A stretch of 64,000 bases of DNA. Origin: Promethearchaeota archaeon (GTDB lineage Archaea > Asgardarchaeota > Lokiarchaeia > Sigyniarchaeales > SOKP01). The notes beneath the pieces are model-generated. The model did no database searches. It saw nothing but the letters and a program-made list of their open reading frames with translations, and was not told the origin of the DNA. Positions 49,209-53,171 of this stretch are shown here, piece by piece (within the stretch, counting starts at the first letter, position 1; the number at the start of each line of letters is the position of its first letter). A program made the position numbers and the translations under genes. The stretch spans positions 5,328-69,327 of the forward strand of contig JAEOTA010000056.1 of NCBI GenBank assembly GCA_016840085.1, read 5' to 3'.

Positions 49209-49547
49209 CTAAAAGAAATTTCTCGTCTCGAATCTATATGCTGCTCGCGTTAAACCTACATAATTATCTGAGATTTTATAAAACATTTTACCATTTACAA
49301 TTTTCTTCTGTAAGTAATTATTTTTTAGAGTATGATTGAGAGCGCCGATCATAGTCCCTAGCGTGACTGCTCCTATAAACCCATGCTGTTTTTTAGTTAC
49401 TCTTATTAATTCAAGCTCAGAATGCCACTGACCATCGAGTAAAGCTATTAGAATTTCGTTTTTAATTGGAGTTTTAATATCCTTAATTTTATTAAATAAA
49501 ATTGAATAGCTAGGTTTATAGTATTTATTTTCCTCAATTCCTTCCAT
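49209..49547 (-). CDS. Winged-helix protein
   Basis: NEILIALLDGQWHSELELI...YLQKKIVNGKMFYKIS. Confidence 0.7.
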   Translation of the reverse strand: MEGIEENKYYKPSYSILFNKIKDIKTPIKNEILIALLDGQWHSELELIRVTKKQHGFIGAVTLGTMIGALNHTLKNNYLQKKIVNGKMFYKISDNYVGLTRAAYRFETRNFF

Positions 49548-50873: not shown

Positions 50874-51620
50874 TTATACTAATAAAATTTTTAGTGGAGT
50901 ATATGTAGTTTCCGGCATGAATGCTTCCCCATATTCGCTATTAATCTCATTCCCTCGTAAAATAGCAGTGTCTTTTGCCCAATCTAAAACGCGTTCTAAA
51001 ACTTCTTTTTGAGAAATATATACACGATTAAAAATTTCTTTTTTACGTTCCCAGGTCTCAGTAATATCTACAATTACAAATACAGATCCTTCAATATATT
51101 GAAATTTGCATGATGGGGATTCATAATAATAAACTCCATAAGGTTTCCATTCTCTTCCATGACCTCCGTAAGCTTTCCCGGTAGAACAATGATAAATTGC
51201 TTCTCTTACTACAAATGATAAATTTCGATGCACTCTATGAAAATCTGTATAATGAGGTAATAAAATTACTTGAGGTTTGTAATCTCTTATCAAATTCGTA
51301 ATTTCTGCAATTTTTTCTCTTTCTCTCTCTAAATTTGAATAATTTAATTCTATAATTTCACATTTTAAAATTTCCTTTATAAAATCTAGTTCTTTTTCTC
51401 TCTGAGATGATATTGTTTCTTTATCCCGTTGTTTAGCATAACCACCTAATCCCCTAGTAGCTATAACAATAACAATTTCAGAACCAAGATCTTGATATTT
51501 TAAAATTGTTCCACCACAAGAAATTAATTCATCATCAGGATGTCCTGCAAAGACAATTACTTTTTTTGGTATAATTACAGGAAGCTTATCTTCACATATC
51601 AAAAATGAATTTTCTGGCAT
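50874..51620 (-). CDS. PIG-L/LmbE family deacetylase
   Basis: GHPDDE..CGGTI, DFHRVH, YGEAF. Confidence 0.9.
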   Translation of the reverse strand: MPENSFLICEDKLPVIIPKKVIVFAGHPDDELISCGGTILKYQDLGSEIVIVIATRGLGGYAKQRDKETISSQREKELDFIKEILKCEIIELNYSNLEREREKIAEITNLIRDYKPQVILLPHYTDFHRVHRNLSFVVREAIYHCSTGKAYGGHGREWKPYGVYYYESPSCKFQYIEGSVFVIVDITETWERKKEIFNRVYISQKEVLERVLDWAKDTAILRGNEINSEYGEAFMPETTYTPLKILLV

Positions 51621-51821: not shown

Positions 51822-52544
51822 CTATTCTCCTCTCATGATCTTCTTCAATCTATTTAACTCATCGAGCATTTCATCTCTAAGAGATCCTAAACCACCGCCT
51901 ACTTGAGGAGCAGCTGCAGGTGCTGTAGGAGCTGCTGTGCCAGGAGGTCTTGGCGGTCCGCCACTAGGAGCTGTGGCAGGTGGTGCAGTTGGAGCGACAG
52001 GTCTTTTTGCAAATGTTGGTGCTTTTGGTGGACCACCACCAGCTGGAACTTTAGGGGGACCTCCACCTGAAGGAGGTAGTTTAGGGGCGGGTGGCAAATT
52101 ACCACGCTTAGGGGGACCGCCACCAGGAGGTGCTTTAGGAGGACCTCCACTAGGGGGTGCCTTTGGAGGACCACCACCAGGTGGCGCTTTAGGAGGACTA
52201 CCACCACTTGGAGGAGCAGGGGTAGCTGTCAGACTGGGGGGAGGTGGAGCTGCTGCTGAAGCCTCAGATGGAACTCCTCCGCTTAATAAGGAAAATAATG
52301 TGCTAGCTGCGGCTGTTTTAGCAGTATCAGGGGTTGCTGCTGCTACTATTTTTTTAGAGGAAGTACTTACTGTTTGAACTTCTTCTACAGTAATATCTTT
52401 TAAATCCTTCTGGGCTTTAGCTAAAGACTTGATAAAATCATTAATTCCTTTTACAGACTCCTCAAGATCATCAGCTAAAGAAGTTAGACCTTTTTTCATA
52501 AAATTAATAACGCGTTCGATTTTTTTTTGCTCTTTTGAAACCAC
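51822..52544 (-). CDS. Coiled-coil / polyproline / C-terminal WH2- or VASP-like protein
   Basis: N-terminal heptads; PPKAPPxGG repeats; GGGLGSLRDEMLDELNRLKKI end; GTG start with GAGG. Confidence 0.8.
   Translation of the reverse strand: MVSKEQKKIERVINFMKKGLTSLADDLEESVKGINDFIKSLAKAQKDLKDITVEEVQTVSTSSKKIVAAATPDTAKTAAASTLFSLLSGGVPSEASAAAPPPPSLTATPAPPSGGSPPKAPPGGGPPKAPPSGGPPKAPPGGGPPKRGNLPPAPKLPPSGGGPPKVPAGGGPPKAPTFAKRPVAPTAPPATAPSGGPPRPPGTAAPTAPAAAPQVGGGLGSLRDEMLDELNRLKKIMRGE
52018..52217 (-). repeat. 27-bp (9-aa, PPKAPP[G/S]GG) intragenic repeats
   Basis: About 6 units in the translation; locally GC-rich. Confidence 0.8.
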
Positions 52545-52937
52545 GTCTTACTCAATTCCTCTAATATTATTGAAAGTTTGATAAAAAGTTATTATTACTA
52601 GTAATAATCTAATATTTTAATTATATAATAAATTAATATGTATTTATATTTTTATTCCATTCTTGAATGAACTTTTAATTTGAACTAACCAGTATTTCTG
52701 AAAAAACGTTAATTATTAAAAAACCTAAACTAATAATATTATATAACATATTTCATTAGTAATTTTTAAATTAATTACATTATAAATTCAAAAAAAAAAT
52801 AAGACATAACTAAAATTTTTGCATTGGTGATTAAATATTCCTAAAAGAGAGCTCTTCATAATAGACTTAACACTCCGTTAGGTTTGTGAAAAAAGGGTAT
52901 ATGAAATAGTAAACGAGCTCAAAATACCACTGTTCCA

Positions 52938-53171
52938 TTGAGATCTCCTCATTTTACATTTGGAGTGGACATTGACGAGCGCGTTTATGATAAGGTTACT
53001 TTCAGTACGGGATCGGCGATCGCATCCGTCATTTTCAAATTTGAAGAGGATGAATCTGTAATCCGAGGATTCCTCGGTCTTGCTGAATACTTTCATACTG
53101 TTGTAATTAAGCGTAAGGACGAGTTTTTCATTCCTCATGCGTCTATATTGTTCCGTTTGATTAGCGCTTAA
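52938..53171 (+). CDS. Small protein, possible Sm/Hfq-like fold; 5' end uncertain
   Basis: VIFKF..VIRGFL..HTVVI..EFFIPHASIL strand pattern; upstream ATG at 52901 is out of frame by one base. Confidence 0.65.
   Translation: MRSPHFTFGVDIDERVYDKVTFSTGSAIASVIFKFEEDESVIRGFLGLAEYFHTVVIKRKDEFFIPHASILFRLISA

Follow-up and report, generated by a model that had tools for sequence, protein, structure and literature searches.

A proline-rich Asgard protein with a widely reused C-terminal helix, encoded near an actin-related gene: a candidate tethering adaptor

Eukaryotic actin factors of the WH2 type arrange an anchor, a proline-rich tract and a basic C-terminal helix in that order. The WH2 domain itself (PF02205) is a short helix followed by an extended, non-helical LKK[T/V] segment that binds the barbed-end cleft of the actin monomer, and Ena/VASP proteins carry an N-terminal EVH1 domain, a C-terminal tetramerisation domain and an F-actin-binding segment in EVH2. 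In bacterial division proteins such as FtsZ, docking on partners is done by a short conserved peptide at the C-terminus, carried by a linker that is long, variable and disordered. For Asgard archaea, the accessible parts of the published record name profilins and gelsolins as the only actin regulators, and a tethering or assembly factor is therefore missing from the described set. Here we analyze a 240-residue protein (the target) encoded at 51822..52544 on the minus strand of a 64,000-nucleotide stretch (the window) of a Promethearchaeota archaeon genome (Lokiarchaeia; Sigyniarchaeales; SOKP01; GenBank assembly GCA_016840085.1, contig JAEOTA010000056.1, positions 5,328 to 69,327). A first-pass annotation, made from the DNA alone, had taken it for a VASP/WASP-like coiled-coil, polyproline and WH2 protein lying beside an actin homolog.

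What we observe is an architecture, its conservation, the modular reuse of its C-terminal helix and a set of gene linkages. The explanation that best fits them is that the target represents, in soluble Lokiarchaeial form, an adaptor of near pan-Asgard range that consists of an anchor, a leash and a hook. The anchor would be a 47-residue amphipathic helix with a short second helix, and in this soluble form it co-occurs with an 88-residue α/β protein that is usually encoded next door; elsewhere among the Asgard classes, one or many transmembrane segments would carry this leash and hook. The leash would comprise about 115-200 proline-rich, disordered residues with conserved proline motifs, and the hook would be an amphipathic helix of 19 residues at the C-terminus. 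Both the docking role of the hook and the identity of its partner are our inference. Because its sequence is almost constant across classes, the hook most likely docks on one conserved cytoplasmic partner, which the adaptor would hold or concentrate at the site of the anchor, with the leash giving reach and multivalency. We consider an adaptor of this kind fairly probable. The leading candidate for the partner would be an actin-family protein, either Lokiactin or the neighboring actin-related protein (ARP), in which case the target would parallel membrane- or oligomer-tethered proline-rich/WH2 factors in function without belonging to their family. The choice of actin is tentative, and the combined statement, an adaptor with an actin-family partner as leading candidate, can be put forward only as tentatively.

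The protein, its family and its reusable tail

The target open reading frame (ORF) and its elements are as follows.

51822..52544, minus strand: target ORF, GTG start, 240 residues, of an unnamed Asgard-only family
52395..52535, minus strand: N-terminal amphipathic helix, residues 4-50, proposed anchor or oligomerization module; from AlphaFold2, with the pattern kept in distant homologues
52284..52331, minus strand: second short conserved helix, residues 72-87, including TAAASTLFSLLSG; from AlphaFold2, with K76-L87 invariant
51900..52247, minus strand: proline-rich disordered leash, residues ~100-215, with PPKAP-type repeats of varying copy number
52071..52100, minus strand: NLPPAPKLPP motif, residues 149-158, 8/10 positions invariant
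51999..52013, minus strand: FAKRP motif, residues 178-182, F178 and K180 invariant
51825..51899, minus strand: putative C-terminal docking module, residues 216-240, helix 219-237, core LRDEMLDELNRLKKIM, invariant in 22/22 members

The AlphaFold2 model of the target, built on a 26-sequence alignment, contains three helices and is otherwise non-regular. The predicted local distance difference test score (pLDDT) is 85-96 for residues 4-50, 56-65 for residues 72-87 and 88-89 for residues 219-237, and the whole protein has a mean pLDDT of 65.8 and a predicted template modeling score (pTM) of 0.23. The C-terminus quoted by the first-pass annotation, GGGLGSLRDEMLDELNRLKKIMRGE, is indeed what the ORF encodes, and the helix expected there is the one predicted at residues 219-237. 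Of the N-terminal coiled coil claimed in the same place, the helix holds up: the monomer prediction gives a long amphipathic helix at residues 4-50, and the helix is all that it shows. The claimed PPKAPP-type repeats are present, with six PPK units visible in the translation and a 27-nucleotide unit, repeated 3.7 times at 52108-52206, that corresponds to a 9-residue repeat unit. This proline-repeat region forms an island of 57% GC in surrounding DNA of ~30% GC.

Among 8000 candidates scored, 240 database proteins match the target at E<=0.01 (best 6e-94); such names as are given all read 'hypothetical' and come from Promethearchaeota/Lokiarchaeota-type metagenome bins. These matches, together with the invariant N- and C-terminal segments of 22 aligned members, argue that the ORF is not a chance frame. 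Invariant or nearly so in the 22 members are the N-terminal helix, TVSTSSKK, the segment of the second helix given above, NLPPAPKLPP, FAKRP and the last 25 residues; the number of PPKAP units differs among them. Within NLPPAPKLPP, the invariant columns (22/22) are L150, P151 and A153-P158, P152 is nearly so and N149 varies, and distant homologues contain related LPPPPKLPP-type strings. The order of helix, proline-rich leash and short basic amphipathic C-terminal helix is thus real and conserved. A search of the family profile against 1.84 billion representatives gives 106 proteins at E<=0.001, 38 at 1e-10 and 16 at 1e-30. At the level of genomes, the family is matched in 172/400 of the phylum, in 117/134 of the window's GTDB family and in all 14 of a sister GTDB family that includes closed genomes, and the tail can still be recognized where the homologue comes from another GTDB family or class. 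Every named member is Asgard, with labels in Thor-, Loki-, Hod-, Sigyn- and Odin-.

Pfam and NCBIfam scans of the target return no family. The ESM Atlas, queried with homologue P0047, returned only that protein's own Asgard cluster and meaningless low-TM structure rows, and a literature search on three sequence words from the tail found no paper. One apparent relative, P0144 (7883 residues, Bartonella adhesin), was rejected as a spurious coiled-coil match. The genome itself encodes a 150-residue paralogue (G000:C83:58444-58896; L002:1459-1911, plus strand) with an N-terminal helix, GPPP/GPPPP runs and a related basic tail, which adjoins genes for a 211-residue protein that reads as a coiled coil and for an Elf1-like zinc-ribbon protein. 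A fused form is represented by a single sequence on one 2153-nucleotide contig (P0121, 549 residues), in which a hydrophobic N-terminal segment precedes the whole family protein with its tail, and a TIR_2 domain follows.

The tail extends well beyond the full-length family. A 36-column tail profile (alignment A4) matches 161/189 Asgard genomes that are at least 90% complete, and by sequence the C-terminal helix is a near pan-Asgard module; four small families gave 0/1, 0/1, 0/2 and 0/1, and in another, 20/40 genomes gave no match. The architectures that it ends are varied. They include 13 proteins of 509-631 residues, three of which, read by sequence, show many hydrophobic segments in a multi-pass-like pattern, proteins of 266-288 residues whose one hydrophobic segment is N-terminal and precedes basic residues, and proteins of 318-336 residues whose genes directly precede an Arf-family gene. 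The tail stands once or twice behind Ras/Roc GTPase domains in 2/31 scanned proteins, two or three copies stand ahead of a Cys-rich domain, and one Odin-labelled protein has three tandem copies with a 42-residue period. At L098:5998-6924 and L198:6672-7595, which belong to a single GTDB family, the tail-bearing gene is followed immediately, in the same orientation, by the gene for an Arf-family GTPase. A weak tail-like helix (17.7 bits) is also found after the beta-sandwich of a Sec23/24-like protein, with trunk and beta-sandwich domains, of the window's own genome (G000:C4:75546-77204; L154:1300-2958, minus strand).

The membrane-anchored forms at L104, L100, L195 and L196, which belong to different families, keep genes for ribose-5-phosphate isomerase, a PIN-ATPase-KH protein and a tRNA-splicing endonuclease nearby, and the endonuclease gene is also found near soluble forms at L090 and L091. 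Because they share neighbors, this suggests that the anchored and soluble forms are positional relatives whose anchors have been swapped.

Neighboring genes: an 88-residue protein and an actin-related protein

We compared the locus with 80 related contigs at 47-88% identity to the query, which we treat as one GTDB family because some of their class names, which come from one study, do not fit that range of identity. The best-conserved neighbor of the target is a divergent gene whose window copy is a remnant.

52837..53171, plus strand: remnant of the gene for a conserved 88-residue α/β protein, divergent from the target; from conservation and translation

The 685 nucleotides upstream of the target show 66-95% nucleotide identity with a three-base periodicity of conservation, and encode the 88-residue protein on the opposite strand. 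An RNA gene had been considered for this region and was rejected: there is no Rfam match and no tRNA, and the region proved to be a protein gene. An intact copy lies divergently upstream of the target in 71/80 loci at a median gap of 290 nucleotides, and six of the nine loci that lack it have no upstream DNA. Among 18 loci from other families and classes, eight have the gene next to the target homologue or no more than 1.6 kb away, in tandem or convergent orientation. It is present in 180/400 genomes, with a distribution over GTDB families that mirrors that of the full-length (soluble) family, and its count is zero in families f9, f13, f16, f18 and f28, where only other tail forms or tail-only matches are seen.

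The 88-residue protein has 396 database relatives, all unnamed, and belongs to no Pfam or NCBIfam family; entries of 78 residues also exist in the databases. Its AlphaFold2 model is confident (pLDDT 91.1, pTM 0.83), with secondary structure in the order α-β-β-α-β-β-β. A roadblock-like fold would be expected from this order, and no such structural match was returned: Foldseek gave no matches at E<=0.001, and the best score of a wide VIA-align search was Z 4.5.

In the window, the gene is broken in three ways. It has ATT in place of the start ATG; an insert of 30 nucleotides at ~52862-52891, common to 6/14 aligned loci, carries a stop codon; and an insert of 38 nucleotides at 52933-52970, found among the 14 only in the window, shifts the frame. 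Exact removal of each insert restores the conserved reading. Both inserts fold as plain hairpins (z ~-2.2), and with regard to the idea of bulge-helix-bulge introns, plain hairpins were seen and no splice motif. The same 30-nucleotide hairpin interrupts the same codon at L035, L026, L040, L071, L059 and the window (alignment A6, columns 348-377). This insert may represent a very small mobile hairpin element or a mini-intron, or it may mark a shift to a downstream start.

On the other side of the target lie the following genes.

50874..51620, minus strand: PIG-L family deacetylase gene, between target and ARP; Pfam PIG-L 82 bits
49660..50781, minus strand: actin-related protein gene, 373 residues; Pfam Actin (PF00022) 296 bits over residues 5-367
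49209..49547, minus strand: 112-residue ORF after the ARP gene; no Pfam or NCBIfam match; present in 74/80 loci

An actin gene about 1 kb away on the same strand, with one gene between, was reported by the first-pass annotation and is there: 1040 nucleotides separate the target stop from the ARP start, with the PIG-L gene alone in the interval, and the neighbor matches the actin profile over its full length. Its best solved relative is the 'HC1 actin' chain (294.5 bits). The genome (4.68 Mb, 89 contigs) holds four actin-family genes, two of Lokiactin type at 441-444 bits, the ARP at 291.5 and a divergent one at 207, and since the neighbor scores 291-296 bits against 441-444 for the Lokiactin-type genes, it is an ARP and not the main Lokiactin. 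The two Lokiactin-type genes (G000:C38:1313-2449 and G000:C83:176166-177308) are 96% identical and lie on separate contigs; with a contamination estimate of 7.6% for the genome, the pair may be paralogues or a product of a mixed bin.

The linkage of target and ARP is well kept in the window's GTDB family and absent from the distant loci. The ARP gene lies downstream on the same strand in 76/80 loci, with two of the four misses at a contig edge. PIG-L stands between the two in only some relatives (51/80), and other syntenic genes include a topoisomerase (71) and a phosphoribosyltransferase (54). By tblastn, an actin-family gene lies within ~7 kb of the target homologue in 0/18 loci from other families and classes, and a Pfam scan of 149 neighboring ORFs from 17 of the distant loci found no actin-family gene and mostly housekeeping genes. 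In two closed genomes of the sister family, the target homologue and an ARP orthologue (51% identity) are 44 kb and 273 kb apart, and in one of these the target, the 88-residue gene and the ARP orthologue all fall within 45 kb. The ARP linkage is thus real but local, being confined to one GTDB family, so that the linkage as first proposed survives within the window's own family and not beyond it.

The partner of the C-terminal helix

The case for an actin-family partner begins with these linkages, namely the ARP downstream in 76 of the 80 loci and the closed sister-family genome with all three genes inside 45 kb. To them we add the GPPP/GPPPP runs of the own-genome paralogue, the order of elements that the target has in common with eukaryotic WH2-type factors and the gap among described Asgard actin regulators noted at the start. 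We suggest, with more doubt than for an actin partner as such, that the family might form a lineage-wide Asgard actin-tethering or assembly module, with an interchangeable anchor, a leash and an actin-binding helix unrelated in sequence to WH2; equally doubtful is the corresponding role of the anchor, which in such a module would be either transmembrane segments or an amphipathic helix working with the dedicated 88-residue protein.

Many observations weigh against actin. The tail had been read at first as a WH2 motif, and on sequence WH2 membership fails the tests run. At E<=10, hmmscan gives the target five weak Pfam matches, PF02205 not among them, and gives 22 members matches to 27 families, 25 of which are listed without WH2, VASP_tetra or EVH1/WH1. 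In 19 aligned tails from several lineages, neither T nor V ever stands fourth in the 'LKKx' string (0/19), where I, L, F or M is found, and the third position holds K, S, E, G, T, A or R; the target reads LKKI, and its own-genome paralogue has a different tail at this position. The predicted helix at residues 219-237 runs unbroken through LKKIM, in a free-state prediction that does not fix the bound state. The tail profile, compared with the PDB, finds only weak coiled-coil rows (E 2.7-10) and no WH2, thymosin, VASP or ESCRT chain, hence no actin-binding peptide. The proline tract consists of PP pairs and PPxxPP units with no long proline runs. The absence of an actin-family gene from the 18 distant loci belongs here too, as does the fact that the ARP-linked region is syntenic throughout, the topoisomerase being kept in 71/80. 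In each of two genomes with a target homologue, a single actin-family gene was detected, and the ARP therefore cannot be the universal partner.

Published work, as far as the accessible parts of the sources go, points the same way. Lokiarchaeial profilins are reported not to bind VASP polyproline, and writing on Asgard archaea and WH2 or polyproline yields only general remarks and 'WH2-like' motifs that all lie within gelsolins. The main text of a Lokiactin co-immunoprecipitation preprint (10.1101/2025.11.30.690169), in the parts accessible, names an Arf GTPase, a profilin and five gelsolin-type proteins, and no target-like protein. Our own scan with the Pfam profilin model was silent in the genome and in controls alike, and is thus uninformative. 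Two properties of the tail itself also count against actin as the single hub: its sequence resembles the tails of ESCRT-III (endosomal sorting) proteins more than it does helical controls, and its amphipathic pattern would also allow self-association.

The first of these properties leads to the strongest alternative, in which the hook is a MIM1-like tail that docks on the MIT domain of Vps4 or on another MIT-like domain, so that the protein recruits or regulates the ESCRT ATPase; it is conceivable that the LPPAPKLPP-type string then provides a second, proline-type contact. In hhalign comparisons, the tail (alignment A4) gives P=5.6e-4 (probability 30%, 11 columns) against 19 Asgard Vps2/24/46-type tails and P=2.6e-4 (probability 42%, 19 columns) against 10 Vps20/32/60-type tails, compared with P=0.095 (probability 0.6%) for the tail against the family's own N-terminal helix and P=0.07 (probability 0.8%) for that helix against the ESCRT tails. 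The genome has two ESCRT-III (Snf7) genes, both away from the target, and the ESCRT-III protein encoded beside Vps4 ends in EKIAELEKELNRLKSDE. The hexapeptide ELNRLK occurs in 2/4987 ORFs of at least 80 residues in this genome, namely in the target tail and in this Vps4-adjacent tail, within the last 35 residues of both. Each of the two tail types forms the very C-terminus of its protein and follows a flexible stretch that contains proline, and Asgard Vps2/24/46 tails are described as MIM1-like in PMC7240154. A second MIT candidate in the genome (29.6 bits) was discarded, as its ORF translation did not look MIT-like.

However, the tail profile in HMMER gives the ESCRT-III tail only 4.5 bits and misses it when the genome is scanned. 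ESCRT tails are shorter than the hook, which has extra conserved hydrophobic positions on both sides, and the Snf7 core (PF03357) has no Pfam match in the target. ESCRT tails read differently in other lineages, with no co-variation with the hook seen, and no ESCRT gene stands beside any locus examined. Snf7 is found in 28/28 genomes tested, 18 of them lacking the hook, and for this reason distribution does not discriminate between the hubs. Short helices rich in K, E and L can also look alike through composition. We judge docking on an MIT domain to be a doubtful but serious alternative, somewhat less likely than an actin-family partner.

Two further readings are improbable, to a similar degree. 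The first is the original one, a VASP/WASP-like actin nucleation or elongation factor whose repeats recruit profilin-actin and whose tail is a WH2 or F-actin-binding segment that works with the ARP. The helix-leash-tail architecture and the ARP synteny fit it, as do the triple tandem tail copies of the Odin-labelled protein, since tandem copies recall tandem actin-binding repeats. It is opposed by the WH2 results above, by the Pfam scans of the target, which detected no EVH1, WH1, CRIB, acidic tail or VASP tetramerization domain, by the confinement of the ARP linkage to one family and by the reported behavior of Loki profilins towards VASP polyproline. The second makes the tail an oligomerization or hetero-association helix that bundles with itself or with other tail-bearing proteins, with no separate hub. 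Hydrophobic positions recur every 3-4 residues over about five turns, a helical-wheel reading of the 19 tails puts acidic residues on one flank and basic residues on the other, and the weak coiled coils were the sole PDB matches of the tail profile. Nevertheless, a helix of 19 residues is on the short side for a stable bundle, plain coiled coils seldom keep a near-identical sequence across classes and unrelated architectures, and the long N-terminal helix could already serve oligomerization.

Least probable is a small-GTPase hub (an Arf/Ras-like GTPase or a longin- or roadblock-type partner, with the adaptor in an Asgard membrane-trafficking circuit), for which the tails fused after Ras/Roc domains in 2/31 proteins, the tail copies that precede a Cys-rich domain and a further C-terminal domain, the Arf-family genes directly downstream in L098 and L198, a Ras-family gene adjacent in L094 and the Sec23/24-like protein speak, but these cases are few and partly related, most loci lack a GTPase neighbor and the Sec23/24 match is marginal. 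Together with hubs of other kinds, such a module would take up the odds left by actin, MIT and self-association.

Comparison with known systems

The family offers testable candidates for how Asgard filaments start or are attached to the protrusion membrane: a 25-residue peptide conserved across Asgard classes, an 88-residue protein with a confident but unmatched fold, and natural variants that are membrane-anchored. Binding of the peptide to actin would show that the logic of tethered proline-rich actin factors is older than eukaryotes, and were the lineage-wide actin module true, the family would supply the link so far missing from membranes to Lokiactin filaments, and would stand as a pre-eukaryotic equivalent of the proline-rich/WH2 nucleation-promoting factors. 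If the peptide instead binds the MIT domain of Vps4, then MIT ligands extend beyond ESCRT-III in the closest archaeal relatives of eukaryotes. New here are the near pan-Asgard tail module, the conserved 88-residue neighbor and the likeness of the tail to ESCRT-III tails.

Set beside WASP, WAVE, WIP and the EVH2 region of VASP, the target likewise combines a localizing or oligomerizing element, a proline-rich disordered tract and a short basic amphipathic helix near the C-terminus, and within its own GTDB family it is linked to an actin-related gene. Unlike the WH2 and Ena/VASP factors, it has no WH2 match, no LKK[T/V], no EVH1, WH1 or CRIB, no central or acidic elements and no tetramerization domain; its tail is predicted as one continuous helix where WH2 has a helix and an extended LKKT strand, and it carries PPxxPP units where those factors have long polyproline runs.

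The comparison with ESCRT-III is similarly divided. Like the MIM1 tails, the target tail is a leucine-rich amphipathic helix at the extreme C-terminus behind a flexible, proline-containing stretch, with a profile similarity at P ~3-6e-4 and one hexapeptide in common with a tail from its own genome. Unlike ESCRT-III proteins, the target lacks the Snf7 core, its helix is about two turns longer with extra conserved hydrophobic residues, its leash is far longer, and it has no gene linkage to ESCRT loci. FtsZ is an unrelated protein, and the N-terminal part of the target is a single helix or a membrane anchor where FtsZ has a polymerizing GTPase; yet the logic of the FtsZ linker and tail recurs in the target, with a conserved short C-terminal peptide carried on a long disordered leash.

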